From Centroscyllium fabricii (Eukaryota), in assembly GCA_051313645.2 (NCBI GenBank), contig JBNRSN020001110.1, forward strand, positions 1-60,303: DNA of 60,303 nucleotides, read 5' to 3'. Within the stretch, counting starts at the first letter, position 1; each line of letters starts with the position of its first letter. Shown here in pieces: positions 8,843 through 60,303 of the stretch. Made by a program: the position numbers and the translations under genes. The notes below the pieces were generated by a model. That model saw only the letters and a program-made list of their open reading frames with translations, was not told the DNA's origin and did not search any database.

Positions 8843-9097
<255 letters not shown>

Positions 9098-9550
9098 TCA
9101 GAAATAAAGGATCAGAGAAACAACAAATATTTTCACTGGTGCACAAAAACAGAGCATTCAAGTGTGAACATCTTTCATGTCGCTTTATATCCACCTCAAC
9201 ATTGGCACGATAGTGTAATGGTTAAGGTATTGGACTAGCAACCCAGAGGCCAGTGTCGGGAGGAGCAGAGAGCGGCTTTCTTTCAGAGGCTTACCAATCT
9301 CACAGACAGGAGGCGGCGTGCCGGAGCCACGTCACAATTCAAAAAGTGACGTGGGCAAGAGGAAGCAGCTGATTGGGTGAGTACGGCCAGGTGAGTATTT
9401 ATACTACTCTATAGTTTGACAGTTAAGATTAGGGTTGCAAAATTCTGGGAATTTTTGAAAAAGGAAACTTTCCATGGGAATTTTTGGGAATTTTGAGTTG
9501 TTTTGCACACTGATGGTTTTTGTCTCGCACCCTTATATTTCTTTGTCACC

Positions 9551-10372
9551 AATTCAATTCTATTTCAAGTTTTATTGTCATTGCAGAGTACTAGTACAAT
9601 ACAACGAGACGAAGACTCGACGCTCCCGAGAGTAGTGCAAATAAATTACATGCAAATTGCATACAGTAAAGTACATTACCAGGCGTGCAGGTACCGGAGT
9701 TCATTTTTAGAGTTCAGGAGGCTGACAGCCCTGGGGAAGAAGCTGTTCTTAAATCTAGACGTGCGGGTGCAAATTGATCTGTAGCGTCTCCTGGAGGGCA
9801 GGGGGGCGAACAGACTGTGGCTGGGGTGTGTGGGGTCTTTAATGATGTTCAGAGACCTCCGTAAGCAGCGTTTGAGTTAGATGCTTTCCATTGACGGTAG
9901 CTGGGTACCGGTGATTCGTTGGGCAGTTTTGACTACCCGCTGCAGTGTTTTCTGGTCCGAGATAGTGCAATTTCCATACCAGACTGTGATGCAGCTTGTC
10001 AGTATGCTTTCTATTGTGCAGCGGTAGAAGTTGGAGAGGATACCGGATGACAGCCTGGCTTTCTTCAGCTTCCTTAGGAAGTACAGGCGCTGTTGGGCCT
10101 TCTTAACCAGAGAGGAGGTGTTTAGTGACCAGGAGAGATCTTCCGAGATGTGGACCCCGAGGAACTTGAAGCTGGACACCCTTTCCACCTCAGCCCCTTG
10201 GATGAAGATGGGGGGGGGTGTCTTCTGCTTCCAGTCCTCCAGAAGTCCACTATGATCTCCTTAGTTTTCTTGGTGTTCAGTGCCAGGTTGTTGTCGGCAC
10301 ACCAACCCACAAGGCGCTGGATCTCATCCCTGTAAGCTGACTCGTCGTTGTTGGTGATCTGGCCAACCACCA
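9551..10372 (-). mobile_element. 5'-truncated Rex1/Babar-type LINE inside the hAT element
   Basis: SSFKFLGVHISEDLSWSLNTSSLVKKAQQRLYFLRKL; AATAAA plus TTGAA tail; closely matches the copy at 48071-48787. Confidence 0.85.
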
Positions 10373-10570
10373 AAATAGACATACTGTTCCATACAAATAA
10401 AAACAGACTTTCAAAACTTTATTTAGGTTATAATTTTGAACTTTATTTTATTTTAGATGGGTCTTTTTTGTGGGGGTTCAATAAAGAGTGTCAGCTTATT
10501 TAGCCTGAAATTTGTCCTTATTTTGTCCCTTTGAGTCTTCTACTCATGAGTCTTCCGAGTCTTCTACTCA

Positions 10571-12284
10571 TCATTGCTCCTCCTGATTCTCTGACTCTGA
10601 CGTGTCCATTTCCTCCTCTGAGTCACTGTCTAGCTATGTGGTGGACACTTCTGTATTTGGCTCAATAAGTTGTAGGTTTGCCCGGATAGCCACCAGTTTA
10701 TCCACTCTCGTTAGTAAGTCTCTTGTGCACCTTTGTATGCGTATTCCCAAAAAGTGAACAGTTGCATTCAGAGGCCGCTGATGAAGGTGTGATTTGGAGT
10801 ATCAGCGATGCAATGGGTGACAGGGCCTCAGATGTACAAAGTCCCTTCCACCAGACCTTGCTTGGTAGAGAATTTTGCCCGACTTCCCAGAACTTTGCCC
10901 ACGTCCAGATTGAGGTGGCGCGAGGGTAGGAATCACACGAAGTGCTGTTGATCTGTTCTCCAGAAAGTCTTGGTCTCCCAACATGCTCCATGAATCGGCT
11001 TGACATAAAATTCTTGACGCGTCTATGAATTGAACAATTGCCTTCTCCTCTGCTTTGCGCAGCAGGGATGTGGGTCGGGCAATTTGTTCTTTTAAATCAG
11101 CAAAAAGCCCGAGAACATCTGACAAGACAGCATCATCTCCTTCAATCTGAGCAATTGCAGTTGCTACTGCTGAGAGCAGTTTAAGGCTGCTCACCACTCT
11201 CTCCCAAAACACATCATCCAGCAGTATTTTCTTGATGGTGGTTTCCATATCCCCAGACTGGAATATTGCCATTTCTTGCAGCGACTCCTTACCCTCCAGA
11301 AGGCTGTTGTACATTATGACAATGCCACCCCATCTAATGTTGCTGGGCAGCTTCAATGTGGTGTTCTTGTTCTTTGTTGTTTGCTTGGAGTTGTAGGTTG
11401 CTGCAACTACCTGTTTTCCTCTGACATACTTAGCAACTTGCTTGGCTCTCTTGTACAATGTTTCCATGGTTCTCAAACCCATGATGTCCTTGAGGAGCAG
11501 GTTGAGCCCATGAGCTGCGCATCCAATAGACGTAATATGAGGGTAGGCCTCCTCCACTTGAGCCCAAGCAGCCTTCATATTCGCAGCATTGTCAGTAACT
11601 ACTACAAAGACCTTTTGTGATCCAAGATCGTTGATGACCGCTTTCAGCTCATCAGCAATGTATGTGCCTGTGTGTCTGTTGTCCTTCGTGTCTGTGCTCT
11701 TGAACACTGGGAGAGGAGTGGAGACAATGTTGTTTATGATGCCCTCCCCTCGTACATTTGACCACCCATCTGAGATAACTGCAACACAGTCTGCCATCTC
11801 TATTGTTTCTTTGAGCTTTCCTTGGACTGTTATACTCAGCCTCCAGCAAATAAGTAGACAAAGCATGTCTGGTAGGAGGACAGTATGCAGGGCGAATAAC
11901 ATTGAAAAATCTCTTCCAGTACACATTGGCTGTAAGCATGAGGGGTGAGCCTGTTGCATATACAGCTCAAGCAAGACACTCATCTGCATTCTTCTGGCTA
12001 TGGTTATCCATTGTATCAAAGAACCGTCCAAGTGGACCAGGAGTTGCTGATAATAAGGAGCCTGATGCTGAATGTGAACCATCATCTTCACGAATGGAAG
12101 CAGAGGAACTCTGGGCTGAATGCTGTGAGCTTTAAGTGAAGTTGTAGCATTTGGATAATTGCTGCTGCATCTTTGTGGCATTCTTTACATATGGCTTTGT
12201 ACAGTGTTTGCACATGTACACAGTCTTTCCATCTTTAATGCCTGGGGTAAAATGCTTCCACATATCCGATGGTAAAAGTGGCAT
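10571..12284 (-). pseudogene. Frameshifted hAT transposase (BED finger, DUF659-type core, C-terminal dimerisation region)
   Basis: WKHF...YMCKHC BED finger; SDGWSN, VTDNAANM, CAAHGLNL and RW motifs spread over several frames. Confidence 0.9.
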
Positions 12285-13023
12285 TGTTCCATGCAGAGAA
12301 ATAAAGAGCATTCGTCTCTGTGTCGAACTGCGGTCGATCAGCACGATTGCAACATGGTGAGTAAATTTTTCCTGATGCTCCATGTGATGGAAGCATGACC
12401 TGTGCACGCACGACGCTACATCACCCGATCAGGACACATTTGTTCACAGTCACACATAAAACTTGTAATTATTAAAACAAGCCAAGTATGAAGATAAACA
12501 TATATTAAGAAATTCCTTAATAATTATGATTCCATCTCTGTTAGTAATTTTAACAGGACCTGTGGAAGAAAATGAAAGAAATAGAAAAAAAAATTATGCT
12601 AGCATGTGCTTTTATAGGTAAAATTCCTAAGATTCCCAAGCTAAACATCCTGTGGAAAATTTCCAGAAATTTACCAGAAACTTTCCACCCCTTGGCAACC
12701 CTAGTTAAGATTAATAGTTTATAAAATTTAGACGGTCTTAATTTTTGTGGTTATAGTTTCTAAGGTCTCTGTTGTGTATCGGGGAGTGCTAGTAACAAAG
12801 GGACCTTGAGTATATCATTTAATTGTAGTGTAATTAGTGGTATTGATTTGATTTAATTTAAATTAAAGGGTAATTCATGGCAAGACAGCTCAGCCCCGTG
12901 GCATGCTCCTCCTGCGCTATGTGGGAAATGTGTGCGGGAAGTGTATCCAGCTGAAGTTACTGACAATGCATTGCGGCGCTAGAGCTGCAAATGGATACAT
13001 ACTGGAGCATTCGCGATGGAGGA

Positions 13024-16159: not shown

Positions 16160-18536
16160 TTGATTAGTTGACTCAGAGACTAGGGTCCTGAAGTTAAATA
16201 AAGGAAACTACAATGGTGTGAGGCATGAGTTGGCTAGGATGGATTGGTGAACGTTACTTAAAGGGTTGACGGTTGTTAGGCAATGGCAAACATTTAAAGA
16301 TCGCATGGATGAACTACAGAATTTGTTGATCCCTGTTTGGCATAAAAATAAAGCAAAAAAGGTGACTCAACCGTGGCTAACAAGGGAAATTAGGGCTAGC
16401 ATAAGATCCAAGGAGAGGACATAAAAATTGGCCAGAAAAAGCAGCAAACCTGAGGACTGGGAACAGTTTAGGATCCAGCAAAGGAGGACAAAGGGATTAA
16501 TTAAGAGGGGGGAAATAGAATGAGAGTAAGCTTGCAGGGAACATAAAAACTGACTGTAAAAGCTTCTATAGATATGTGAAGAGAAAAAGATTGGTTAAGT
16601 CACGCATAGGTCCCTTGCAGTCAAATTCAGGGGAATTTAAAATGGGGAACAAAGAAATGCCAGACCAATTAAATACATACTTTGGTTCTGTCTTCACAAA
16701 GGAGGACACAAATAACCGTCCAGAGATTTCGGGAAACACAGGGTCTAATGAGAGGGAGGAATTGAATGAAAACAGTATTTGTAGGGAAATGGTGTTAGGG
16801 AAATTGATGGCATTGAAGGCCGATAAATCTCCAGGGCCTGATAATCTACACCCTAGGGTATTTAAGGAAATGGCCCTAGAAATAGTAGATGCATTGTTGG
16901 TCTTCATCCAAAATTCTATAGACTCTGGAATAGTTACCATGGATTGGAGGGTAGCTAATGTAACCCCACTGTTTAAAAAAGATGGTAGAGAGAAAACGGG
17001 GAATTATAGACCAGTAAGCCTGACATCGGAGAAAATGCTAGAGTCCATTATAAAAGATGTAACAGCAGAGCATTTGGAAAACAGTGACAGGATCGGACAA
17101 AGTCAACATGGATTTACAAAAGGTAAATCATACTTGACTAATCTACTGGAATTTTTTTGAGGATGTAACTGGTAGAATAGATAAGGGAGAACCAGTGGGT
17201 GTGGTGTATTTGGACTTTCAGAAGGCTTTCGATAAGGTCCCGTATAAGAGATTGACGTGCAAAGTTAAAGCACATGGGATTGGGGATAAGGTACTGACTT
17301 GGATAGAGAACTGGTTGGCAGACAGGAAGCAAAGAGTTGGAATGAATGGGTCTTTTTCCCAGTGGCAGGCAATGACTAGTGGGGTACCACAGGGATTGGT
17401 GCTAGGACCCCAGCTATTCACAATATATATTAATGATCTAGACGAGGGAACTAGTTGTAATATCTCCAGGTCTGCAGACGACACAAAGCTGGGTGGGCAT
17501 GTGTGCTGTGAGGAGGATGCAGAGAAACTCCAGTATGATTTGGACAGGTTGGGTGATTGGGCAGATACATGGCCGATGCAGTATAATGTGGATAAATGTG
17601 AGGTTATCCACTTTGGTGGCAAAAACAGGATGACAGATTATTATCTGAACGGCAATAGATTGGGAAAAGGGGAAGAGTAAAGAGACCTGGGTGTCCTTGT
17701 GTACCTGTTGCCGAAGGTAAGCATGCAGGTACAGCAGGCGGTTAAGAAGGCAAATGGTATGTTGGCCTTCATAGCGAGAGGATTCGAGTACAGGAACAAG
17801 GATGTCTTGCTGCAGTTGTACAAGGCCTTGGTGATACCACACCTTGAGTATTGTGTGCAGTTTTGGTCGCCTTATTTGAGGAAGGATGTTCTTGTCATGG
17901 AGGGAGTGCAACGAAGGTTCAGCAGACTGATACCTGGGATGGCAGGAATGACGTATGAGGAGCGATTGGGTCGATTAGGCTTATATTCGCTAGAGTTTGG
18001 AAAAATGAGAGGGGATCTCATTGAAACTTATAAAATTCTAACAGGACTGGACAGACTAGATGCAGGAAGGATGTTCCCGATGGTGGAGGAGTCCAGAACC
18101 AGGGCTCACAGTCTAAGGATAAGGGGTAAGCCATTTAGGGCAGATGAGGAGAAATTTCTTCACCCAGAGAGTGGTGAACCTGTGGAATTCTCTACCACAG
18201 AAGGCAGTTGAGGCCAACTTATTAAATATATTCAAGAAGGAGTTAGATATATTTCTTAAGGCTAAAGGGATCAAGTGATATGGGGAGAAAGCAGGGACAG
18301 GGTGCTGAATTTGGATGATCAGCCATGATCTCATTAAATGGCGGAGCAGGCTCGTGGGGCCGAATGGCCTACTCCTGCTACTATCTTCTATGTTTCTATG
18401 TCACGAGTTCAAATGCCAAAGTTACAGAAGAAAGAAAATGACTATGAAAGCTGCTGGATTGTTGCAAAAACCCGCCTGGTTCAATAATATCCTGAAGGGA
18501 AGGGAAATTTATTCCCTTACTCCAGTCCCACGATAT

Positions 18537-21861: not shown

Positions 21862-23588
21862 ACGGATACCCTCACAGATCCTTGCTTTATGAGTCAATGG
21901 GATAGATCTTGACTTTGTGCAATAGTGTAAAACTGGTTGATAGTGAGCTGACAGTCCGTTTTACATCTCTCATCATTTTCATTTCCATTGTGTCACCGTA
22001 ATAAATAACTTCTCAGGAAATATTCTCTTTCTAACTCTCTGCAACTGTTGCCTCTGTTCTCTGCATGCCCCAAGGTTAGGCTGACCAGCTCACGTGAAAT
22101 GTACCTTTAAAAATACATAGCTCCCAGGATTCCCCAGGTTTCACACCCCATAGAAACATAGAAGATAGGAGCAGGAGTAGGCCATTCAGCCCCTCGAGCC
22201 TGCTCCACCATTTAATGAGCTCATGGCTGATGATTCAATTTCAGTACCCTGTCCCTGCTTTCTCCCCATATCCCTTGATCCCTTTAGCCTTAAGAAATAT
22301 ATCCAACTCCTTCTTGAATATATTTAATGAATTGGCCTCTACTGCCTTCTGTGCTAGCGAATTCCACAGGTTCACAACTCTCTGGGTGAGGAAATTCCTC
22401 CTCATCTCGGTGATAAATGGCTTACCCCTTATCCTTAGACTGTGACCCCTGGTTCTGGACTCCCCCACCATCGGGAACATCTTTCCTGCATCTAGTCTGT
22501 CCAGTCCTGTTAATTATAAGTTTCAATGAGATCCCCTCTCATGCTTCTAAACTCCAGCAAGTACAAGCCCAATCGACCCAATCTCTCCTCATACGTCATT
22601 CCTGCCATCCCAGGTATCAGCCTGGTGAATCTTCGCTGGACTCCTTCCATGGCAAGAACATCCTTCCTTAGATAAGGTGACCAAAACTGTACACAATACT
22701 CAAGATGTAGTCTCACCAAGGCCTTGTACAACTGCAGCAAGACGTCCTTGTTCCTGTACTCAAACCCTCTCGCTACGAAGGCCAACATACCATTTGCCTT
22801 CTGAACTGTCTGCTGCACCTGCATGCTTACCTTCAGCGACTGGTGCACAAGGACGCCCAGGTCTCATTGCACTTCCCCTTCTTCCAATCTGTTGCCATTC
22901 AGATAATAATCTGCCTTCTTGTTTTTGACAAGTGGATAACCTCGCATTTATCCACTTTATATTCCATCTACCATGCTTCTGCCCAATCACCCAACCTGTC
23001 CAAATCATACTGGAGTTTCCCGGCATCTTCCTCACAGCACACACAGCTTTATGTCGCCTGCAAACTTGGAGATATTACATCTAGTTCCCTTCTGCAGATC
23101 ATTAATATATATTGTGAACAGCTGGGGTCCAAGGACCGATCCCTGCAGTATCCCACTAGTCACTGCCTGCCACTCTGAAAAACTATTTGCTTTCTGTCTG
23201 CCAACCAGTTCTCTATCCAAGTCAATACCTCACCCCTAATCCCCTGTCAGGGTTCTATAAAAAAAAAAATTCACTTGCCCACTCGGGCAAGTGGATTTCT
23301 AAAACACTTGCCCAAACATAAAGTTCACTTGCCCGAAATTTTTAAAGAAATAAAGATTTTACATTTTTATTAAAATGCTTCAATATAAAGCCATAGATTG
23401 TGATTGTGCCTTTAGTTGCATTGGCCTGGTTTCTGCCCCTCTCTCCCTAAAACTATTGGCCTCTCCATCCTATTCCACCTTTAAAAATCTATTTCCTCAA
23501 GTATTCACTCCATTTCTTCATTTGTCTCTTCCAAACTTTGTGAAGACTCCGCAGGCCGCGGGCTCCCTCACTCTCTCTCCCCGCCTAC

Positions 23589-23826
23589 CTTCGTCCAGCA
23601 GCCGCTCCAGGTGTGAAGAGCCGCAAAAGCTGGGCAGGCTCAACATCAGCTTCTTGTCATTCATCAGCTGCATCAAATAGTCGGACTGGGTCTCGGCTTC
23701 TCCCTCACTCCCATTCCCCCCCCCCCCCCCCTCGGGACTGGGTCTCGGCTTCTCCTTCACTCCCATTCCCCCCCCCCCCTCGGGACTGGGTCTCGGCTTC
23801 TCCTTCACTCCCATTTCCCCCACCAT
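23589..23826 (-). pseudogene. QKI: Captured QKI (quaking) coding exon 1 with a triplicated N-terminal segment
   Basis: [15 protein letters not shown]...[31 protein letters not shown] compared with vertebrate [50 protein letters not shown]; ends GAAG|GTAGGC. Confidence 0.92.
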
Positions 23827-25705
23827 TCTTTTATATATATATATTTTCCCCCCTCTGAGGTGTAATTATAAAGATTTTATAATTGATCGAAAGAATAAAG
23901 AGAGTTGGTTTTTTTTCTTCTCAGAAGCCGCTCCGGTTTTTTCTCTCCCCCTCAGCAGGTCGACGGCACCGACCCACTCTTGCCACGCTTAACCAGCCCA
24001 CTCCACCTAACCCGACTGCTGCCCCATCGCGATTGACACGCCGCCTCCTCCAATCCCCGCCACACCGCCCGGCCAATCCACACCCGCCTCCAGGGCAGGA
24101 TCCACCAACCCCGTTCCCGTCGTCGTCAACCAATCAATTTGACGCGCTGCCTCCTCCAATCAACCACCGCGGCAAACAGAGACATAAACACGATCATCCC
24201 GTGGGCTCGATCATCGATGTGAAATACAGGTACACAACCCTTTATCCGAAACCCTTGGGACTAGATGTTTTTCGGATTTCGCAATTTTTCAGATTTCGGA
24301 GTGAAATTTCAAAGTAACAAAAAATATCAGAGCAGCAGACTGGTAGCAGCGCTTGTCTTCAGGTTTGCAGCCTCTTCCTTCCTGCACCCTGCCTCTGTAT
24401 ATGGAAAAATCACTGCAACCACCAACTGGCACCGACTGATTCCGGGCTCCCCCCGTGCACACCCACTATTCCATCTGGTGCCGGCGGCCTCGGTGAGGAG
24501 GAGGGCACTGTGACCCAGGACATGAAGTACTCCCCCGGCCCGGACGGCGGGGCTGTGCTGCTGACCGGCCAGCCTCCCACCCCCTATAGTGTGCCCGGCC
24601 CGGCACTCGCCGATCAGCCTCCGCACTCAAGTACACGTTGACCCCGGGACTGCCCCGACACACTCCCCGAGCAGCAGCAGCAGCTCCACGCTGCCATCAG
24701 GGTCTGCCAGAGGAGCAGCGCCAACCCCCGGCCCCAACCGGGGCCCGCCATTTGACAGCAGGTAAGTAAAAGCCCGTACAAGTATTTCACTTATAAAAAT
24801 CAGTCGTCGTTTCTTATTGCTGATTCGGGGTTTTTTTAACATCTTTTATCAGGTTTTAATTTTAGTGTTTTAAACTAGGGTAGGAAAAACTAGGCTCAAA
24901 AAACCTGGGCAAATTCAGAGAAAATCACGAATAACAAGTTGTATTTTGAACTTCAGTAAAACTCAAAAACAAAACAAGCAGGAGACGACAAAGCAAAATA
25001 ACAACCGATAATTATTTGCACTGTTTGCAAACAGACCTTTATGGGGGGATCACCATCAGACTCTCACTTAACCTCCTTGATAGGAAACTAAGTTTAGTGT
25101 TGTGGCTGCAGCCACTTGCATGCCACTATGATGGTGGGATAAATGTTGGGAGATGATGCGCAGGGGAACAGCGGCAATTGTGCTTTTAGTAAACAATGCG
25201 TGGGTGTGTGACCTGAGCTAGCCTTCCATTGATAACCTCAGTCTATGGGGGCTCTCAGTGGAACTGTACAGGTAACTGCGTTAGCACGCTGCTCCATATC
25301 TAACTAGGACTGGAAGACCAATCTTTGCTGCAATATAAAGAACAGTCTTCATAGCAGCTCCTTTAAAGATTCAAAGAAAGCTGCACATTGCCCAGTCCTT
25401 GTTCCTTTCCCTGTCAAAAATCAGGTGACATGCATACATGTCTGAAACTGATGTTTTTATTTGGTAAAAAAACAATGGGAAATTGCCACTTTTTATCTCA
25501 AATTCGGGAGGAAGTCAATTGTTCACCTTCCAAAACGATCCGGCAATTTATGAGTAAAAATCAGCAAAACAAACTGTTTTAATCATCCCTATTCTAAATA
25601 GCTTTAATTTCAGCTTTTGAACTAACTCAACACCTTTCAGTCAGGCTTTGGCTCAATTTTATTCAAATATTTAAGTGACCTGATCTTAACTTGCTAATGA
25701 TTGTA

Positions 25706-26029
25706 GAGGTACACAATCCTTTATCCGCGACTCCGAAAACCTCCAAAAAACAAAATTTCAAATGACCCGAGTCGCGTGCGAAACATGACCCGACGCAACC
25801 GACGCTTGACCCACGCAAGTGAGAGGCGTCAGTATCTGAACACTGACCTCCAATATTTTTGGGAATTTGCTCTGTTATTTTTTTTTTAAATGGCTAAAAG
25901 AGCAGCAGATACCACTTTTTGTGAATATTCACATGGTTCGCTGCAGAAAAACTAATGTTAATGCGACCATTACAAAAACCGAAAATATCCGAAATCCCCA
26001 AGGTTTTCGGATAAAGGATTGTGTACCTG
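25706..26029. mobile_element. Tc1/pogo-type MITE
   Basis: TIRs (C/G)AGGTACACAATCCTTTATCCG; inverted relative of 46090-46480; a lone left TIR also lies at 24227. Confidence 0.85.
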
Positions 26030-27082
26030 TGTTGTCGACAAACCTCATGCTTTCCTTGCACCAAATGTGGCTATTTGTGGAAGGAAAGTCTCTCGATGTA
26101 CATTTATCTATTGCTCCCATCTCTAGTCTCATCTTTCCTTTGTTATTTGTAATTGTCTTTTCCTGCTTCTGTCTTTTTATCTTCTTACAATTTTCTTCAC
26201 AGTTCACCTTCCACTCTGTTCTTCCTGCTAGCCAGGGTCCGCGCACGCTCTGGTCACCTTCATCGCCGGTCACCGCCTGGCTGCGCGCACACACCTTTCC
26301 ACCAACCCCCAGTGCTACTGCCGGACCCGGCCACTGCGCAGGCGCCGGGAGGCACAACTCGGGTCACGACTGAACATCGCACTTGCCCAACCGGGCAAGT
26401 GCGATTTTGATTTGCTTGTCCTTCGCCGCATTTTGCTTGCCCCGGGCAAGTGGTTTTGTCGCGCCCTGCCATATGCCTTAATTTTACACGCTAATCTCTT
26501 ATGCAGGACATTATCGAAAGCCTTTTGAAAGTCCAAGTACACCACATCCACTGGTTCTCCCTTATCTATTTTACCAGTTACATCCTCAAAAAATTCCAGT
26601 AGATTAGTCAAGCACGAATTAACTTTTGTAAATCCATGTTGACTTTGTCCGATCCGGTCACTGTTTTCCAATACTCTGCTATTACATCTTTTATAATGGA
26701 CTCTAGCATTTTCCCCACTACCGATGTCAGGCTTACCGGTCTAAAATTTCCCATTTTCTCTCTCCCACCTTTTTTGAACAGTAGGGTAACATTAGCTACC
26801 CTCCAATCCATAGGTACTGTTCCAGAGTCTATAGAATTTTGGAAGATGACCAGCAATGCAGCCACTATTTCTAGAGCCACTTCCTTAAGTACCTAGGAAG
26901 TAGATCATCAGGCCCTGGGAATTTATCGGCCTTCAATCCCGTCACTTTCTCCAACACCATTTCCCTACAAAGATTGATTTCTATCAGTTCCTCCATTTCA
27001 TTAGACCCCATGTTCCTCGACATCTGCGGGAGGTTGTTTGTGTCCTCCTTTGTGAAGACAGAACCAAGTATGTTTTTAATTG

Positions 27083-30000
27083 TGTTAAGTCTTAGCCATT
27101 GCTAATAAGGAAGACGCAGGAGCCAACAGAGCATCGACTTGTTTATTAGACTGCTCGAGGAATACAAGAGACTGGTGCTGAGATATCCCTACATGCACCA
27201 GGTGGACCATACCATTACAGACATAGAGCAGGGGGGGAATCATAGACCATACCATTATAAATACATCACATCTCCTCCCCTCCTACAATGAACGTCGAAT
27301 TAACAATATTACAATATTAAATACAATTAACAATATCTCAATCAACACAATTTAACAACATCAACTAACATATACATATTGACAACCTCAACCCGAAGGG
27401 TAATTATTCTGCCCTGCATATGGACAGGTCTCTACTTATCAATGCCTAGCCTATCCGGGGGTTGTCGTTCTCTGGTAGGGTACCTACGTTCCCCAGGAAC
27501 CCTGGGACCCGAAATTCGCAAAGCGGACGGGGACGTGACGGTACCGGATGAAGAGACAACAGAAGGAGGCACAGTCTCAGCCGGTATACTCGGGATCACA
27601 GGCTCAAGCTGAGGTAGTTCTGCATAAGAGACGGGCAACTGAAACGCAGTAGATGGTTCAGGGTATGAAATCTCAGGAACGCCTTCTGAGGGCAACTGGG
27701 TAGATTCTTGTGAAGCCCACAACTGGTCGAGGTGTCTCCTCCAGACCAGGCCAGTGGCGGTCTGGACCATGTAGGACACTGGACCCGTTTGGACAATGAC
27801 AGTAGCCTGAACCCACTTAGGACCACTCACGTAACTACGTGCTAGTACAGAGGCCCCTTGTGTGAAGGTCCTATTTTTAGCATGTTGCTCTCTTCTGGCC
27901 ATCTGCAGTCTCTGCTGCTGCTGCACATTGTCCTTTACTGAGGACGGTTTCAACAAGTCAAAGGATGACCACAACTCCTTTTTCAGCAACAATTTTGCTG
28001 GTGATTCTTTAGTGGTAGCATGGGGGGTACTTCGATATGTCAACAAAAACTTGTGCAGTCTCTGATGTAGAGTTCCCTGATGTTGGGAGGCTCGTAAAGC
28101 ATTTTTCATAGTCTGGACAAACCTCTCTGCCAGACCATTAGTCGCAGGGTGGTATGGAGCGGACCGTATGTGTTGCACCCAATTTGCCTGCAAGAAGGCA
28201 GCCATGTCCTGTGACATGAACTGAGGTCCATTATCAGAAACGAGCTGTTCTGGGGCCCCAAAGCGACTAAACATCTCCCCTAGTCTCTCAATAGTTTTCT
28301 CTGTAGAGGTGGAATGCATAATTGCCACCTGTGGCCACTTGCTATGCGCATCGACAGCTATAAAAAACATCCTGTCTTCAAATGGCCCCGCAAAGTCCAC
28401 ATGCACCCTCTGCCATGATTTCTCTGGAAAACTCCAGGGATGCAACGGAGCCAACTGAGGGTTATTCCTAACTCTTTGGCATGAGGGACATTTCTTAGCC
28501 ACTTCCTCAATCTGCTTATCCATAATAGCTTCTGGCTATCTCTTTCATGCGCACAATCCCACTGTGCCCTGAATGCAATTGTCGCAAGACTAGTTTGCGT
28601 AATGGTGGTGGCATGACCACCCTCCTCCCCCATAGCAAACATCCCGACTGAACAGAGAGCTGCATTTTCCTAGATAGGTACGGCTGCAATTCACTTCCGC
28701 CATTACCAGCGGCCCCATGAACAACAATATCCAAAACAGAAGACAAGACCGGGTCATTGCGTGTAGCTCCTTTAACCTGTACAGCAGTAACAGGAGCATC
28801 CTCAACATGACTGAAATAAAAAACCTCTGCCTTGTGAAATTCAGGCTTGACAACCCGAAGAGGCAACCTGGATAATCCATCAGCATTGCAATGAGAATCC
28901 GCCTTGCGGTATTTGATGTCATACGAATGGGCCGACAACAACGCCCAACATTGTAAACGACTAGCAGCAAGAGAAGGAATACCCGTATGTGGACCCAATA
29001 TGGTCGTAAGAGGCCGATGATCTGTGAAAAGAGTGAATCGTCTGCCATACAGATATTGGTGAAATTTCCGCACCCCAAAAACAAAACTTAATGCCTCTCG
29101 CTCCAGCTGAGCATAATTAGTTTCTGCTTTATTTAGCGTCCGTGACGCAAAAGCAATGCGCCTTTCAACCCCATCAGACATGATATGAGAAAGGACAGCA
29201 CCTACTCCATATGGAGAGGCATCACACGCTAGCTGGAGTGGTAGAGAAGGATCAAAATGGGTCAGGACTTCGGACCTTACTAACAACTCCTTAGCCTTCT
29301 GAAAAGACTCTTGACAAGACGTGCTCCATTTCCAAGACTTGCCCTGGCATAACAACTCATGTAACGGTTTTAATAATGAAGCTAAATTGGGAATGAACCG
29401 ACCATAATAATTTAGCAACCCCCTGGAAAGAACGTAACTGGGTAACATTTTGAGGCGCTGGTGCCTCTACAATGGCCGTGGTTTTGGACGGGGCTGTATG
29501 CAACCCTGCAGCATCAATAACATGACCCAAATACTCTGCAGATGAGCAAAAAAAATCACATTTCTCCTTACGGACTCTAAGTCCATGCTCCTTTAATCTT
29601 AGGAGTGTCGCATCCAAATTGCGAAGATGCTCTTCATCAGATGCACCGGTACACAAAATATCATCTAAATAACATTGGACGCCTGGTAATCCACTGAGGA
29701 TTTGATCCATAGCACGTTGGAACAACGCAGGGGCCGAGGTGATTCCAAAATGTAACCACCTATAACGAAAAAGACCTTTATGCGTGGTGATAGTAAGAAG
29801 CTCACGCGAGTCTTCATGAATGTGCACCTGCAAATATGCCTGACAAAGATCTATTTTGCTAAACCTTTGTCCCCCACTGAGACCAGCAAATAGATCAATA
29901 CGTGGAAGCGGATACTGCTCCGCACAAAGCACTGGATTCAAGGTTACTTTAAAGTCTCCACAAGTCCGAATGCCTCCATCCTTCTTTGGCACTGGAACTA

Positions 30001-32229
30001 TGGGCGTAGCCCAATCACTAACTGTAACTGGCTCTAATACTCCATCCTTCACAAGAGCATCCAAATCGGCTTCAACTTGTGGCCAGATAGCATACGGAAC
30101 AGACCTGGCTTTCAAAAATGCTGGCCTGCTACCCAGCTTAGTATGTAATTTAACCGCTATGCCTTTCATGCTGCCCAATTCCTCCCGAAAAACCTCCATG
30201 TTTTTTTAATATTGTCTGCAGCGTCTCAGAATGCTTAGATATCAGATGGACTGCCTGCCAGTCCAGCTTGATTTCTTTTAACCACATGCGCCCCATAAGG
30301 GCAGGATACTCCCCCTCCGTAACGTATACTGGGAGTTTTGCTGTGTTACCGCCATACCGGACCATCGTATCGGTCATTTCCCTCATGGGCACTGATTGCC
30401 CTGTAAATGTTTTAAAGGTAGTATCTGATGGTCGCAACTTCAAGTGCCCAAAATATTTCTTATACAGACTTTTTGGAATAATTGAGGCTTTTGACCCCGT
30501 ATCTAAATGCATTCTAACGGCATAGCCTTCTACTTTAGGAGAAACCCAATACCCATCAGAGCCTTCATCTACATTCCGTATTGTTAGGGAGTTAACACCC
30601 ATTTCTTACCCTGAGGATTCACTATTCTTCCTTTCTTGTTCTACCGTATGAACTTTCCGTTTCTTCCAACCCCCATACTTTGATGGTTTACCCTTGCCTT
30701 CCTTACTGCGGCATGCCCGCTCTATGTGGCCCTTTTTCTCGCAGCTACGGCACTCTAAATCCTTGCACCAACAAGTAGGTGCTAGGTGACCTGTTTGGCC
30801 GCAACGAAAACACGGCCCTGGACCGCTTGATTTGTAATCACTTCCCATTTTACATACAGGACTCGTGGGTTTTATATCCCCTCACATGGTATCTGCATGA
30901 CTCGTAGTCACATGGAACTGCTGGGCTTCCCTTGAAGCCATCTCTATTGCAATCCCAATAGTCAATGCCTTATCCATTGTTAAATCAATTTCTGTTAGCA
31001 GCTTTTTCTGAGCTGCCGCATTGCTCAGTCCACACACAAACCTATCTCGTAGTGTGTCCGCTAAAGCATTCCCAAAATCACAGTATTCAGCCAGCTTCCT
31101 TAGCACAGCTGCAAACCCATTTACAGACTCACCCTCTTCTTGAGTACGTCTATGAAAACGGAACCTTTCCACAATAACCAAAGGTTTGGGTGAGAAATGA
31201 AGTCCCAACATATCCTTAATTTGGTTATATGTTTTGGTGCCTGGTTTATCTGGGTGTACCAAACCCCTTAAGAGGTTGTATGTCCTTGGACCCATAATAC
31301 TCAAAAACGTAGGGACTACCTTCCTGTCCTCAATACCATTGGCTAACACAAAACAATCATAACGCTCTGTATAGTTAGACCATTGATCCAAACTCTCATT
31401 GAATGGCTCCATCTCACCCACGACTCTAGCCATTATCCTCGAATTTCAACCCGGAGACAGACTCCTTAACTTAAAACCGTAATAAAATTCTTATTTTTAA
31501 ACATTGATTAAAAGTCCACTTAAAACTTTAACATTGTCCAAAATGGCGTCTTCTGCGGCCCGCACGTCTTCACCAAATGCTACCAAGATGGCGATTTTTC
31601 GCGCCCTTCGTGCCTTCTCCACAACGAACACAATATGGCGATTTCCTCGTTTTCCCGTGGCGTGCCCCCTGTGCAGGATATCTCTTACCCCGTTGAACAA
31701 CTCTGTTCCAGGTCCTCGCAATCAGCACCGCCACGTCCGCTTCACCGCGGTGGCAGGTTCCTGTAGACTGAGTCGCTGTCCTCCAGCCCCCTCTTTATAC
31801 AGCCTCACCCGTCGATCACGGCACGTCTCGCCGGCCCGGGGTCTCGACACCGGTCTGCAGCCCAGCCACTCGCCCCTTCTTCTAGCGCTGGCCTTCCTGG
31901 CTGACACCGTTCCTGCTCCAAAGTCTCCTCTCGACGTTTGCCGATTTGTTTTCTTTATTGGTGCCGAATCCTTCTTCATTCGGTCCAATCTCTTTCCAGA
32001 CTTCCTATTTGTGGATCCACCATCCACCTCGTCGCCAATTTGTTAAGTCTTAGCCATTGCTAATAAGGAAGACTCAGGAGCCAACAGAGCATCGACTTGT
32101 TTATTAGACTGCTCGAGGAATACAAGAGACTGGTGCTGAGATATCCCTACATGCACCAGGTGGACCATACCATTACAGACATAGAGCAGGGGGGGAAATC
32201 ATAGACCATACCATCATAATTACATCACA
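27083..32229 (-). mobile_element. Full-length Ty3/Gypsy LTR retrotransposon (Mag-like) with frameshifted gag-pol
   Basis: LTRs 32041-32229 and 27083-27270 (3 substitutions, 1 indel); 5-bp TSD AATTG; PBS TGGCGACGAGG (tRNA-Ser); PPT 27271-27284; gag with two CCHC, LDTGS protease, YLDD RT, RNase H, integrase. Confidence 0.97.
27432..31433 (-). pseudogene. Gypsy gag-pol, order PR-RT-RH-IN, broken by frameshifts
   Basis: ORF-track pieces 30882-31433, 30606-30848, 30150-30602, 29357-30199, 28516-29448, 27432-28523. Confidence 0.93.
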
Positions 32230-32363: not shown

Positions 32364-33450
32364 TGTAATGAAATCTGTTGTCTGTATATATTCGTTTTGC
32401 ACTCATGTATATTGTCCTCCCCCACTGTGTATAGTTTCACTTCCTATTTCCTGATTAAACCTGGGAGATTCCAGGAATTGGCTTTGGCTCTGCCCCTGGC
32501 TCTGCTTACATAAAGAACCCAGTTTCTGTTTGACTCATTCCTGTGAGGCAGCCGGCCCGTCGAGATGTGAGCTCCAATTCTTAGATTAAAAGCTTATCTG
32601 TTTAAGTCTATAACTTCTAGTTTTGTAGTTATTGAAGGCACATCAATTTTAATCACTAAGAATACTAGGATGGATTGACTCCTAAAACCAAAGCGTCTGG
32701 ACTTGGATCCACATTCTGCTGAAGCATCAAATCAATTTGGACACTGGCTCAGATGCTTTGAACTCTTCATGGAGGCCGCATCCGCTAGCAAGGCAAAGAA
32801 ACTGAGTCTACTGACTACTCGCACAAGTCATCGGACTTATTCGCTCATCCGGGACGCCACCTCTTACACGGAGGCCATTGCTAGCCTGAAGGCCAAATAC
32901 CAGAGGCCGGTAAACGAAGTGTACACCAGACATCTGCTGGCTACACGCAGGCAGCGACCACAGGAATCAACGGACGACTTTACCTGGTCCGGGACTGTAA
33001 CTGCAAGGACGTGACGGCCAAAGTGTACTCTGACGAATTGGTCCACGATTCCTTCATCGCAGGCCTCAAATCGAATTATATCCGGCAGAGACTGCTGGAG
33101 CAGGAGGCCCTGGATTTAAAAGGGGCAGTGCACGATCACTGGACGTGGCCCAGAAAAACTCTGCCTCCTATTCTTCCGGCCATGCGGCACTCACCGCCTC
33201 GTGCGCGCCGAGGGGGCCGCCTTCTTGGAATGAGCCACCTTCCCCACCCAGGTCTCAGGCCAGCTCTACGCCGCCGGAGTCCCCACACAGAAATTTACCC
33301 AGGAGTCCTATTACAGCAGCAACGTCTCGAGACCCGAAATGCTACTTCTGCGGCCAGGCCAAGCATCCCAGACAACGTTGCCCAGCGAAGGACGCTACAT
33401 GCTTCAAATGTAAGAAAAAGGGGCATTTTAGCAAAGTCTGCAGGGGGAAT
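32364..33450 (+). mobile_element. Second Gypsy: 5' LTR (32364-32645) and gag remnant, truncated
   Basis: TGTAAT...ACATCA LTR with ATTAAA; gag LDLDPHSAEASNQFGHWLRCF and knuckles CYFCGQAKHPRQRC and CFKCKKKGHFSKVC. Confidence 0.8.
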
Positions 33451-35177
33451 CTGATTTCCATCTCCGTCTCCCTCGGAAAAGCCAATGCCAACCATCCAAG
33501 ACGTCATTAAGTTACAGGAGGACGCTCCTGACTGTGATAAGGGGCTGTGGAAACAGCTTGGTTGTACATATGATTCTGTGTCTAAACTATGGGTCACCCC
33601 AGCTGAGCAAACTTGTAGGTCAGATGAGCTAGCATTATGGGTTATTGAATGTATGCACTTTGCAACTCATTGTGGTGCCAGAGCATGGTGGCATCAACAA
33701 TGACCAGTACATATTTATAACACTGACACCTTTCCAGCTCAATATAGTCCATCTGGAGGGTCTCAAAAGGACCCGTGGGTAACGGTGTCTTACCCATTTC
33801 ACAAGGTATGCCTTTTCCCCGGTTATGCTGCTGACAAATGAGGCAGCGACTGCTAATACCTTGAGCCAGAGATTGTAATCTGGGATGCCACCATGTGGTG
33901 CCAGAGCAACTAGTGACACCTAAAATAGTCGAAGCTGCTCATGGGGGGCAGCCCATTTGTCTTCCTTACCTGATTGGACTTTAGATAACGATTTTGTTTT
34001 GCGGTATATATTGTTGATGTATTTAGTAAATGGATTGAGACCTACCCGACTACGGATAACAAAGCCTCCACTGTTGTAAAAGTTTTAATGAGAGAAATTA
34101 TTCCCAGGTACGGAATTCCAAACCGATTAAGTTCAGATAATGGCCCTCACTTCGTGGGTCAGGTAAACAAGGAATTCTGCACCCAGATGGGCATCCAACA
34201 GGAGCTACATTGTGCCTACAGGCCACAGGCTGCCGGACTGGTCGAACATGCTAACCAGACCGTGAAAAATAAACTTGCCAAATTACAGGCGAGACGGGAA
34301 CTACCTGGCTCAAACTACTCCCCGTGGCCTTGTTCCAAATACGTACTACCCCGGCTGGTGCAGCAAGGTTGAGCCCTGCTGAAATCATATATTACATGAG
34401 GCTCCACTACTCCACCTTCCACACTAACCACGTTAAAGAAGCCATCCCCTATGGACAAGCCCTGCGAATACACAGGATCTGCTCAGACGAGGAGGAACGC
34501 AATGGAAACCTACAGACACTGAAAGACGCCCTCGTAAAAATGGGATATGACACTCGACTCATCGATCGACAGTTCCGACAGGCCACAGCGAAAAATCGCA
34601 TCTACCTCCTCAGAAGACGAACACAGGACACAACCAACAGAGTACCCTTTGTCGTCCAGTACTTCTCCGGAGCGGAGAAACTACGCCATGTTCTTCGCAG
34701 CCTTCAACATGTCATCGATGAAGCCGAACACCTCGCTAAGGCCATCCCCACGCCCCCACTACTCGCCATCAAACAGCCACCGAACCTCAAACAGACCATC
34801 GTTCGCAGCAAATTACCCAGCTTTCCAGAGAACAGCAACCACGACACCACACAACCCTGCCACGGCAACCTCTGCAAGACGTGCCAAATCATCAGCACAG
34901 ATACCATCATTACACGTGAGGACACCACACACCAGGTACATGGTACATACTCATGTGACTCGACTAACGTTGTCTACCTCATACGTTGCAGGAAAGGATG
35001 CCTCGGCATGGTACATCGGCGAGACCATGCAGACACTATGACAACGGATGAACGGACACCGCACAACAATCGCCAGGCAGGAGTGTTCCCTCCCACTCGG
35101 GGAACACTTCAGCAGTCAAGGACATTCAGCCTCCGATCTTCGGGTAAGCATTCTCCAAGGTGGCCTTCGAGACACAC

Positions 35178-35676
35178 TGATAAACTTTGGCTAATTCTAG
35201 ATTGCTTTACTATAGTTTGACATGGGCTAAAAGTTTGGTAGCAAAGAGGTAAAAAGTATAGCGGCAGTCTGTCTAGAGATCTTGTTCTCATAACAAGCTG
35301 CAGCAGCAAAGATAAGGAGGAGTCAACACAAGATGTTGACATTTAATTGGATTTGTATTGTCTCTATTTTTTTCATTGGTTGTTTTCGTTTTTCAGAATT
35401 ATTCGCTGAGCATGTACGTTTAATCTTTTTGTATTGCATAAATAATTGCAGTCTTGGAGCGAGCGGGGCGCACTTCTGGGTTGCTATACGTGTGCAAACA
35501 CAAGTGTCTCTCCGAGTGAAGTACCGGTACTGGGTAATAAACTTTAACTATTTTACAGTCTCTGACTTTGTGTATTACTGAGAAAGTGACAGACTGACCG
35601 ACATGTTTAGTCTCCTAACGTAAGAACCCAGACCCCCAGGAGGGTGGGTCCTCCTCACAGAGTGAGTGAGTTAACA
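35178..35676 (+). mobile_element. Solo LTR inside the Penelope element
   Basis: TGATAA...TTAACA termini; 4-bp TSD ACAC at 35174-35177 and 35677-35680; AATAAA near 35536. Confidence 0.85.
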
Positions 35677-36089
35677 ACACGACAACGTAAAATCATCGGG
35701 CAGAGGCTGATAGCCTAGTTCCGCACCCATGAGCACGGCCTCAACCGTGATATTGGCTTCATGTTGCGCTGCATGTGACCCCGCCTGACGTAGAGTCATC
35801 CAGACTCGAGTCGTATTTGGCTTGTTCTCACTGCACTGTTGCGGCTGCGATTTCCAGTAAGAAAAATCCTTTTTTTTTTTTAATCATTCTGTGGGTTTTC
35901 ACACAGACACCAGACTGTAACATTTGACACTCTGTGACTGCACCTCATTGATCTCAGGCTGACTGATATGTTAGAACACCTTTGATTGCTTTGATGTCTC
36001 TCTGCTGAGGTGTGATGTTGAACAGTTGGAGAGACTACATTGTTCTCTCCCTCTATATATATGCTGTGTTTAAATGAATCTCTTCACTT

Positions 36090-36124
36090 CACCTGATGAA
36101 GGAGCTGCGCTCCGAAAGCTTGTG
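36090..36124 (+). ncRNA. Minimal hammerhead ribozyme in the Penelope pLTR
   Basis: CAC-CTGATGA-A-GGAGC-TGC-GCTCC-GAAA-GCTT-GTG: intact core boxes, stem II, palindromic AAGCTT. Confidence 0.8.
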
Positions 36125-36633
36125 ATTTCAAATAAAACTGTTGGACTATAACCTGGTGTTGTGAGACTTCTTACAATTGTCCACCCCAGTCCAACACATG
36201 GAAATCATATATGGCAGACCGCTCAAAACCCCGTGGAACCAGGAAGTCCCAAAGACTGTCCACTTTCACCACATGACGGCAGAAATGACTAACTATATTT
36301 TGTCGTTAACCAGGGCATTGAGAAGTCTGCACTCCCGGGTACGCGCTGCTTACGTCGACCTCCCTCCTATAGCTAGTCTGTCCAAAATCGAGCCCGGAGC
36401 TTATGTATTGATCAAGAATTGGACGAGAAAAGGATTGGAACCTCGTTGGGAAGGACCCTATCAAGTCCTACTCACCACCCCAACTGCTGCCAAAGTAGAG
36501 GGAAAGAGTGCTGGGGTTCACCTCCACCACTGTAAAATTGTCAGTAATGTTGTGCCTAAAACTTAAAGAATGCTAACCCCTCTCTTTCTTCCAAGAAATG
36601 TCTCCTTAAACAGACGTGGCGTGCCGACCGGCC

Positions 36634-38438
36634 ATGCAGACACCACTATGGATCCTCTCCATCAGTGTCCTGCTCACTCCTGGAATAACTCAACAGCCCA
36701 GAAGGAGAACATGGCGGCAGGACCAACCCAAGCGGGTACACCATCTATGCCAAGGAGACGTGCTTCAGTGCAATGATGATAACCCAAGAGGGTTCGGGAA
36801 ATGGAACATGATCAACTTGGATACCTACACTGGGCTTTTCAGACAGTCCCCCCGCTCGCTAGTGCTGAGAAATAATCACAGAGGGACATTGCCATGCTAT
36901 CGGACTGAGTGTAAATTTGATTATGTTTGCCGACGTCAAGCGGCCGAGTCTGTTACTGCAGGACCAGGACTTAGAACTACAGATACCAAAAAACAAAATC
37001 GTTATCTAAAGTCCAATCAGGAAAGGAAGACAAATGGGCTGCCCCCTATGAGCAGCTTCGACTATTTTAGGTTAGAAGGTGCCCTCACAAAAAGACGTAA
37101 ACGAGATCACCAATGCACTTTCCCTGAAGAAACCCCGACGGGTAACCTATTCCTCCAGACCCACGCAGCCCTATACTCACCAAAGTCAATTGTTTGTTAT
37201 CCGCCCCTGAAATCTGTTATGGGGATGTTTGCCCCAACCCCGGTTATTGTTCCCCCGGACTTTCTTTTAGATACTCACCTCCCTCCTCCCACAACCAATA
37301 TAACATTACCCTATACCTTAACCCCGCCCGCCAATTGCCTGAGACTAAACAGGAACCCTACTGACTATGAGAATTGTTGGAATGGGACGGGCTATGGTTG
37401 TAGGTCGGTATGGGTTAAACAGAACTACACCTGCTTGGTGACACGCTGCCTCCACCATCAATGTACGGTAGGACCTGACACCGTGAGCAATCCGTATGTG
37501 TGCCGATAACCGAAGGAGTACAAGTTCTATGTGGAGAAGGGAATGGGACAACTCTGAAGGTAGAGGGGGAAACCTTTATTATAGTACAAATAGCTAATAG
37601 CCTGCTGATAAGTCAGATACTCTTGAGATCCGAAGTTTAGACTATTTCCTTCCCCCGAGCCATTTAAGCACAAGGTGGAAAAACATACCCGTGATATATA
37701 CCAAACCCAGCTATTTTTTCTTGAGCCAAGGAAAAGCTACTAATTACATGGTAGTAGATGGTAGTAGATACCGCCCCCCGGACTGTAGCCATCGCTACCT
37801 TAACCCCTACCACAGTACGTTGCCCCTACCAATGGACACCCCACCGAAGAATAGTAGCCAGGGCAGCCTCGGAAGAGTTTTGCTCCAAGTGGAAAGATCC
37901 TGAATCCCTAGGAGGACACGGAACCTCTATAGGATATGGATTTGCTGGCCTGTTCTCTATAGGCTATATTGGAGCCTATTTGGCCACCAATAACCGGAAC
38001 TACCTTATCTGTGGCCTCACCATCGTGGGTAATGCTACCATGGGGGCCCTCGACGCAGTCACTGAAGAATTGTCGGAACTCAAGTTGTACGCTATGCAGA
38101 ATAGATATGCCCTAGACTACCTGCTGGCCCGAGAAGGTGGTGCCTGTGCAATAGTAAAAGGTAAATGAATTATGGGAGTCCGAGACCAGACAAAGAACAT
38201 CACCCACTTTATCACTAAGATAAGGGAACAAATGGATAATATGAAGGAAGCAAGTAACTGGGGAGAATGGGGATTTGGAGGATGGTCTGACTGGTTGGTA
38301 AATATGGCTATGTACTTAATAGTTGCAATCGTCGGTATCTTTGTTGGACTAGCAATCATGAAATGTGTTAGGAAGAATGCAGCTAGCTTTGGAAAAAATA
38401 GGTGCCTCAAAGTTGTTAATAGTAAGCCAGACCAATGA
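36634..38438 (+). pseudogene. ERV envelope with gamma-type TM subunit, disrupted
   Basis: Upstream acceptor near 36613; signal peptide; KRRKR; immunosuppressive domain QNRYALDYLLAREGG plus CX6(C>stop); TM helix; frameshifts and a stop at 38166. Confidence 0.9.
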
Positions 38439-42327: not shown

Positions 42328-42417
42328 TGTATTTAAAACTTTGGCTGCATTTTTGTTATGTTTCCCATAGATGGCAAAGTGGAAGCTGCGAGCTCCAGTT
42401 TGATGCACTGCAGGGAC
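42328..42417 (-). CDS. SDHA: SDHA coding exon 2 (mitochondrial targeting region)
   Basis: VPAVHQTGARSFHFAIYGKHNKNAAKVLNT resembles human [38 protein letters not shown] acceptor, GTAAGT donor, 90 nt, phase 0/0. Confidence 0.92.
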
Positions 42418-56709: not shown

Positions 56710-56751
56710 CGATCGTTGGAGCAGGGCCGCCGCCAGGCAACGCGCCGCCAT
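56710..56751 (-). CDS. SDHA: SDHA coding exon 1 ([14 protein letters not shown])
   Basis: ATG in GAAATGG context inside a CpG-rich patch; Arg/Ala/Leu presequence; GTGAGT donor, phase 0, in frame with exon 2. Confidence 0.8.
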
Positions 56752-59900: not shown

Positions 59901-60303
59901 GGTGGAGGGGGGGGGGAGAGGGGGGAGAGGAGGGAGGGGGGAGAGGAGGGAGGGGGGGGGAGAGGAGGGAGGGGGGAGAGGAGGGAGGGGGGGAGGGGGG
60001 GGGAGAGGAGGGGGGAGGGAGAGGGGGGGAGGGAGAGGAGGGGAGGGAGAGGAGGAGGGGGGGGAGGGAGAGAGAGGAGGAGGGGGAGGGGAGAGGAGGG
60101 GGGGAGGGAGAGAGGGAGAGGAGGAGGAGGGGGGGGAGAGGGAGAGAGGAGGAGGGGGGGGAGGGAGAGAGGAGGAGGGGGGGAGGGAGAGGAGGGAGGA
60201 GGGAGGGGGGAGGAGGGGGGAGGGGAAAGGGGGGAGGAAGAGGAGGGGGGAGAGGAGGAGGGGAGAGAGGAGGGGGGGGTGGAGAGGGGGGGGGGGGGGG
60301 GGG
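56930..60303. repeat. G/A-rich low-complexity satellite ((G)nAGACAG, then GGGAGAGAGGAG-like) with N gaps
   Basis: Direct reading; gaps at about 58625-58951 and 59431-59577. Confidence 0.95.

Follow-up and report, generated by a model that had tools for sequence, protein, structure and literature searches.

The stretch of DNA considered here, called the window throughout, comprises positions 1 to 60,303 of contig JBNRSN020001110.1 from the shark Centroscyllium fabricii. It carries a part of the SDHA gene, and within SDHA intron 2, inside a long interspersed element (LINE), there lies at 23248–26468 a non-autonomous hAT element that encloses the 5′ end of a quaking gene, qkia. An earlier note, made from the letters alone, had described this region as a Pack-TIR-like element, and the finding of both of its ends and of the LINE that it splits bears out that description. 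We consider it very probable that the element is one of more than 1,600 hAT copies carrying the qkia upstream region, exon 1 and splice donor, that these likely go back to one capture of genomic DNA by gap repair, and that they were likely spread by a ZNF862-like transposase.

The element and its cargo

The element begins with CAGGG at 23248 and closes with CCCTG at 26468. Its left terminus, CAGGGTTCTATAAAA, has an imperfect inverse ending at 26468, the two being alike at 11 of 15 positions in the window copy and at 13 of 15 in the usual ends of the family; the terminal inverted repeats (TIRs) are therefore short, about 15 bp, and imperfect. Both ends also contain CACTTGCCC...GGGCAAGTG palindromes. 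The host LINE, which has reverse-transcriptase frames, extends over 22510–27060 on the minus strand, and the flanks that the element separates adjoin each other in intact LINE copies at 17178–17387 and 53961–54168. The empty LINE site, CCCCAATCCCATGTGCCTT, was found 8 times among the loci retrieved. Measured against this site, which reads CCATGT, the target-site duplication (TSD) of the window element is 6 bp long, not 8, with one change on each side, CCCTGT at 23242–23247 and CCATAT at 26469–26474.

The cassette is read from the minus strand, and the segment at 23556–24177 is the 5′ end of qkia: an upstream region with CCAAT boxes, the 5′ untranslated region (UTR), coding exon 1, the donor and about 33 nt of intron. 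The coding exon occupies 23826–23589, with its ATG at 23826–23824, and matches the QUA1 region of Quaking (PDB 4jvh/2ymj/4dnn, E ~1e-9; Pfam STAR_dimer, positions 4–35 of 53). Exon 1 holds only that part of QUA1 and ends mid-helix. Its last base, 23589, belongs to the phase-1 donor GAAG/GTAGGC, just as had been proposed, and the intron piece that opens with GTAGGC (23556–23588) aligns to the parent loci L035 and L039. Over 23556–23724 the identity to the parent is 90%. The exon of the window copy is damaged, although its frame is open: a 48-nt stretch from its 5′ part stands in three tandem copies (23668–23815; a similar duplication occurs in L002 and L004), and there are a −1 deletion and a loss of 3 nt. 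The lengths of poly-G runs in this copy may be read errors. Upstream of the exon, the 5′ UTR and a CpG-rich region (23827–24177) contain four CCAAT boxes, at 24050, 24073, 24130 and 24156, with a CpG observed/expected ratio (o/e) of 1.11 over 23900–24226, as the earlier note had anticipated for this stretch.

Around the qkia piece lie the parts that belong to the transposon. The hAT 3′ arm (23248–23397, minus strand) includes the TIR, the palindromes and a minus-strand AATAAA at 23366–23371, and is 87–92% identical to the ends of the transposase-coding elements L135, L139, L140 and L148. Between this arm and the intron piece is a spacer (23398–23555) that is not in the parent, and the portion of it beside the intron piece is common across the family. 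On the other side, an inner hAT 5′ arm (24178–24226, minus strand), ending in ...GTGAAATA, aligns to the end of the transposase-coding L139 by way of the short copy L050. The remaining 5′ arm with its TIR (26373–26468, minus strand) is 81–90% identical to transposase-coding elements.

About two thirds of the window element, 24227–26372, is later cargo without relation to qkia. This cargo was added at a TA in the 5′ arm and does not occur in the minimal form of about 900 bp, whose joint, 24225–26374, is present in sequencing run X1. It opens with a presumably Tigger/pogo-like TIR and a GC-rich block. Within the cargo, 24760–26257 is peculiar to a small subfamily of long elements, with 124 first-look candidates, and 25706–26029 is a TA-flanked miniature inverted-repeat transposable element (MITE) of 324 bp with perfect 21-nt TIRs, present in the window copy only among the copies examined. 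Sister copies connect 25705 directly to about 26028–26032, and the same MITE-free joint occurs in runs X1, X5 and X11. For the segment of the long subfamily, no donor locus was found among 40 candidates scored per search, the 29 further loci inspected matching element sequence at the query or near it.

Parent gene, transposase and target sites

A genome search for a parental locus and for sister copies had been suggested, and both were found: the sister copies have the same TIRs with different TSDs, and the parent lacks TIRs. A protein search placed the parent on contig C834. The gene has several exons: some 42 kb separate exon 1 from exon 2, and the later exons lie 42–157 kb downstream of exon 1. 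Alignment to the parent maps the capture breakpoints to window positions 23556 and 24177. The window is alignable to the parent locus L035 over 23556–24045, as far as a gap of 200 N; a small contig, C916, has the same exon (L039), spans the gap and reaches an array of 12 CCAAT boxes, of which the element holds a part, out to 24177. L039 is probably a redundant haplotype piece of the same locus. TIR motifs are absent from both L035 and L039 in the 5–10 kb retrieved around the parent, and the CpG o/e of the parent is near 1.

Exon 2 of the parent is 92% identical to quaking-A of Mustelus and 71% to human QKI, and it has only two matches in the genome, qkia itself (100%) and a paralog on contig C1044 (67%). 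Judged by these identities and by the two matches, the donor gene is the qkia paralog and not QKI proper; a tetrapod-type QKI was ruled out as donor by the exon-2 identities and the second paralog. The earlier reading of the cassette as QKI exon 1 with the QUA1 region was thus right about the Quaking match, but the gene is another paralog and QUA1 is only partly included. According to the accounts cited (PMC4699748, PMC11457510), qkia is a paralog of ancient origin that tetrapods have lost. Since intron and upstream DNA have been retained and align to the parent, and exon 2 has not been amplified, the proposal of a DNA-level capture, not retrocopying, holds.

The hAT label, which began as a guess, is supported by transposase-coding elements with the same ends, in which both arms match at 81–92%. 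Fourteen transposase loci were reached by way of long open frames, and most of them are elements of 2.1–5.3 kb whose arms are the same and whose hAT transposase is ZNF862-like. The class is given by Pfam zf-C17orf113 and Dimer_Tnp_hAT and by an Atlas assignment as ZNF862-like (score 0.97); PF05699 lies above the cut-off in pieces of L116 and L135 and below it in L038 and L139. A candidate DDE triad and candidate CxxH motifs were spotted by eye, and no PDB entry matched at E≤1 for alignment. The transposases of L138, L139 and L140 break at the same point, before '...YRTRVVD', and this shared break may be an intron that is absent from L135 and L136.

Target sites were scored at 53 full-length elements, 17 of them without qkia DNA. 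Exact duplications of 5 bp were found at 15, of 6 bp at 8 and of 7 bp at 6 (29 exact duplications of 5–7 bp), the shuffled-pair control giving 0.07 for 5 bp, 0.04 for 6 bp and none for 7 bp. The canonical 8-bp duplication of hAT elements of the Ac, Buster and Tip type was considered and rejected, as none of the 53 has an exact one and there is a single 7-of-8 case. Among the eight transposase elements with both ends, an exact 5-bp TSD was seen in three and a 4-of-5 match in two, the remaining three being unclear. Judged by its transposase, then, the vehicle is a hAT element, though not of the canonical 8-bp type.

One subfamily (288 candidates) retains a hAT C-terminal frame just inside the left arm, between the arm and qkia. 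In L038 and in L116–L134 the qkia exon 1 lies upstream of this transposase tail, with an AG immediately before the tail; judged by eye, a splice at that AG would not keep the hAT domain in frame. The window also contains a separate hAT element at 9430–12703. Its ends read TAGGG, its TSD is exact and 8 bp long (GTTAAGAT), and its DUF659 transposase, on the minus strand, is broken; the element is split by a LINE and likewise lies within SDHA intron 2. Its TAGGG ends, its 8-bp TSD and a patchy identity of 22% to the partner transposase led us to reject it as the mobilising partner.

Copy number, decay and genomic setting

An element-specific 21-mer from exon 1 has 489 exact matches genome-wide (control 0). 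Since 32 of the 56 copies sampled have this word without a mismatch, the number of exon-bearing copies is estimated at about 860 (700–1130), with the calibration sample leaning to copies that resemble that of the window. A derivative without the ATG has lost 326 nt between two 9-nt repeats, and with them the ATG and most of the exon, while retaining the upstream DNA and the donor; its junction has 1,144 exact matches. In one subfamily, 12 of the 16 informative loci have this ATG-less form, and the identical joint appears in an independent run. For the left arm, exact matches number 2,800; this count and the 1,144 are uncalibrated lower bounds. Together, the two exact words give at least 1,633 qkia-bearing copies, and there is in addition a cargo-free sister form of about 800 bp. 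First-look candidates (4,328; 5,801; 2,586) were not taken as copy numbers.

One intron-side junction, which is not in the parent, is common to 80 of the 84 donor-bearing copies; therefore, a single capture is indicated. Later additions mark the subfamilies: the Tigger-like block, the long segment of the window copy, private insertions and a second promoter-like module, with GC and CCAAT boxes and a 29-nt minisatellite. This module lies between the inner and outer right end, at 2238–2642 (minus strand) of L041, and it occurs also in L044, L046, L051 and L054; the subfamily concerned is large, with 2,586 first-look candidates. The donor gene of the module was not found among 40 candidates scored per search, the 24 further loci inspected matching element sequence at the query or near it. 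Parts of the element are also covered by contigs of sequencing runs that bear four organism labels between them, and three of these runs show the joint in its state before the MITE insertion; the labels are coded and the shares small.

The copies lie about 3–6% from the column majority. In two samples the exon has a ratio of non-synonymous to synonymous change (pN/pS) of 0.99 (31 copies, 14 frameshifted) and 0.98 (9 copies, 6 frameshifted), and in a positional sample of 20 there are 23 synonymous and 86 non-synonymous changes, with 7 copies frameshifted. These three samples were chosen without a protein score, and the counts ignore shared ancestry; a further sample, of 18 copies selected by protein score, gave a pN/pS of 0.18 and was left out of account because of this bias. 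By these counts the exon is decaying neutrally, without constraint. Relative to the non-CpG rate, CpG transitions are 4.0–4.2 times as frequent in the DNA that stems from qkia and 3.6–4.4 times in the transposon parts, the LINE control being 2.6, and the likely cause of this erosion is germline methylation of most copies. Because CpGs have eroded about fourfold and the exon appears to decay neutrally, it is likely that most copies are silent.

As for the setting of the window copy, the cassette has the same orientation as SDHA, as had been stated earlier, and the next annotated-type acceptor downstream is that of SDHA exon 3 (8873–9040, minus strand, phase 0; PDB SDHA, E 4e-30). Splicing of the phase-1 donor to exon 3, which starts at 9040, would be out of frame, also as foreseen, with a stop after 8 codons, and the product would likely be degraded. 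A likely SDHA exon 2 of 90 nt, bounded by AG and GT and of phase 0, lies at 42328–42417 (minus strand); we take it to resemble human SDHA exon 2. A likely exon 1 lies at 56751–56710, exon 3 being the one among exons 1–3 that the search confirmed. Introns 1 and 2 measure about 14 and 33 kb and consist almost throughout of repeats. Next to the host LINE, a long terminal repeat (LTR) retroelement at 27083–32197, with 157-nt LTRs that are 99% alike and broken minus-strand gag-pol frames, looks young. It is followed at 32679–38438 by broken provirus-like remains on the plus strand, with gag-like, integrase-like and env-like frames and other repeats interrupting them; the env-like frame has weak TLV_coat and HR1-HR2 matches. 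The contig is small, with purine-rich low-complexity tandem sequence at 1–5000 and 57000–60303 and runs of N near its right end.

Origin, alternatives and significance

How might a hAT element have come to carry the 5′ end of qkia? Going by mechanisms known from the literature, the qkia locus would have served, through template switching, to fill an excision or replication gap within a hAT element. The fill would have replaced most of the transposase gene, with the qkia promoter taking the place of the transposase promoter in the same direction. As to the breakpoints of such gap filling, the intron side adjoins the spacer that is not in the parent and the promoter side is diverged. Sub-lineages would later have acquired cargo or, through the 9-nt microhomology, dropped the 326 nt bearing the ATG. 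The qkia cargo would be mostly a passenger, with most copies likely methylated after insertion, and a minority, if unmethylated and in a sense-oriented intron, would be exon traps like those of HelibatN3. Without splicing, a copy would yield QkiA(1-47) with Gly as residue 48, a product for which no dimerisation is predicted.

Several observations weigh against this account. An unbroken transposase was not seen among the 14 long-frame loci, each having at least two frames where visible, and 6 of the 53 elements, that of the window included, have no TSD call under a one-mismatch rule. The ATG, an open frame and the GT are intact in 9 of the 20 positional copies, and the subfamily with the transposase tail, with a pN/pS of 0.37 and 1 of 11 copies frameshifted, gives a hint of constraint, in counts that again ignore shared ancestry. 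No splice from the donor was seen among the matches listed, which are contigs of one RNA and one guessed-RNA run, with cover of parts of the element and small shares. Finally, a comparison of the family majority with the parent shows changes at 5 of about 29 synonymous sites and 21 of 208 upstream sites, with none at non-synonymous sites; this exceeds what would be expected from the 3–6% distance between copies and majority; the donor could have been an older state of the gene, a lost duplicate or the gene of a related species.

This last excess would be accommodated if the capture had taken place in another lineage, or from a lost qkia duplicate, the loaded element having arrived by horizontal transfer or outlived its donor; the presence of the family in runs of four organism labels would agree with this. 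Yet the majority protein is identical to the parent of this genome at all 47 residues, V7 and S14 among them, two positions at which T stands in the other shark sequences retrieved, and time since capture with change on the line of the parent fits as well, purifying selection on the parent after an older capture being compatible with a difference that is synonymous only. We regard a foreign or lost donor as improbable. The match at every one of the 47 positions would also agree with a short QUA1 peptide, produced from the copies and acting as a dominant negative on Qki dimers, as would the 75-residue read-through frame that several copies have ahead of the minus-strand AATAAA and the scarcity of frameshifts in the transposase-tail subfamily. 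However, since the intron splits codon 48, reading through the donor gives Gly48, and the E48G change abolishes QUA1 dimers and leaves an unfolded monomer, according to the account cited (PMC3592866). Because read-through would give this dimer-blocking residue and the remainder of the helix, which exon 1 leaves off midway, is missing, a dominant-negative peptide is unlikely; the neutral decay, the frameshifts common to many copies and the wholesale loss of the ATG also speak against it, and on balance we hold this reading to be very improbable. In the protein collection, the read-through tail of the family was not covered at high identity by any of the best 120 of 169 matches, the tails not being individually inspected.

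More consideration is due to the proposal that the copies, and the ATG-less ones above all, are active and selected exon traps, giving host genes non-coding first exons or aiding their own spread. The ATG-less form, which keeps the upstream region and the donor, outnumbers the full form (1,144 against 489 exact words), the GT of the donor is retained in 47 of 50 copies, and the upstream region of the window copy still has the high CpG o/e given above. There is precedent in HelibatN3, in cells and in bats (PMC4778049), and the highest copy numbers among Helitrons are reached, in the account of PMC4224331, by those that bear promoters. But CpG erosion is fourfold, the retention of the GT is what a divergence of about 4% would lead one to expect, the excess of the ATG-less form can be explained without selection by a microhomology deletion in a single prolific master copy, and the lack of a donor splice among the matches listed counts here too. 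An active, selected trap thus seems to us a minority possibility. It is tempting to go further and to propose that the ATG-less sub-lineage prospered as a clean non-coding first exon, able to restart host genes in any frame, amid thousands of portable promoter-donor cassettes, and that the transposase cuts with a variable stagger of 5–7 bp; this we put forward as speculation, doubtful as it stands. A retrocopy, a segmental duplication or a misassembly might be suspected from the small contig with its low-complexity ends and from the possible poly-G errors, but the retained intron and upstream DNA, the unamplified exon 2, the cleanly split host LINE and the TIRs and TSDs at dozens of unrelated sites refute these readings at the level of the family, and we give them virtually no weight. 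The preferred reading remains the single capture by gap repair followed by spread within the hAT family.

The family has TIR ends on both sides, an unlinked parent, capture at the DNA level and repeated transposition with distinct TSDs; by each of these features, it is a multicopy Pack-TIR. The closest precedent is HelibatN3 of vesper bats, a Helitron with the promoter and exon 1 of NUBPL, which is parallel in content and scale to judge by the accounts cited (PMC4224331, PMC4778049). HelibatN3 is, however, a rolling-circle element, whereas the present family has the TIRs and TSDs of a cut-and-paste hAT; the bat element is a proven exon trap, whereas the family of the window is known here from sequence; and the prolific ATG-less derivative is a feature of the latter, unlike HelibatN3 as there described. 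The earlier note held capture by TIR elements to be best known from plants, which leaves out vertebrate precedents, namely Pack-TIRs and HelibatN3. The survey of animal Pack-TIRs in 100 genomes reports 370 of them, 4 being multicopy (1.4%), the examples given having three to five copies each, and its main text does not mention sharks (PMC8277862). Pack-hAT-N8_XT, which carries the CAPSL 5′ UTR, is alike, as that source presents it, in having host DNA between ends that are mostly hAT, an unlinked parent free of TIRs and distinct TSDs; the qkia family differs from the animal Pack-TIRs of the survey in its at least 1,633 qkia-bearing copies, which include promoter, coding exon and donor. Rice Pack-MULEs share the DNA-level capture of GC-rich gene pieces, sometimes with a promoter, and modules from several sources, but as summarised in PMC5861414 they belong to another superfamily, with TSDs of 8–11 bp and long TIRs, and they have many donors at low copy, as against one donor at high copy here. 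hAT5, hAT6 and hAT7, compared by description, likewise combine a hAT transposase with a TSD below the usual 8 bp; each is described as having one fixed length (5, 6 or 7 bp), whereas the present family has all three, 5 bp being the commonest (PMC12730594). The paper on hATx-6 is concerned with target sites of 8 bp.

In the literature searched, mostly non-subscription and with Repbase and Dfam outside its scope, no report of a quaking-carrying transposon was found. It is well supported that the family belongs to a known kind, within which it stands out by how many copies there are, by the lineage that has lost the ATG and by a TSD of variable length; any host function is putative. Its copy number is hundreds of times that of the multicopy animal Pack-TIRs in the survey, as reported there (PMC8277862). 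Amplification of a host promoter to high copy, together with first exon and donor, has among vertebrates been documented best in bat Helitrons, and it is seen here with a cut-and-paste hAT element as well. That one hAT family has TSDs of 5, 6 and 7 bp is relevant to what determines TSD length and to the value of this length for classification. In practical terms, the copies will inflate counts of quaking-like genes and confound short-read mapping to qkia. Above all, full-exon, ATG-less and cargo-free lineages with the same ends amount to a natural experiment, in which the effect of a promoter on amplification, methylation and host transcription may be tested.

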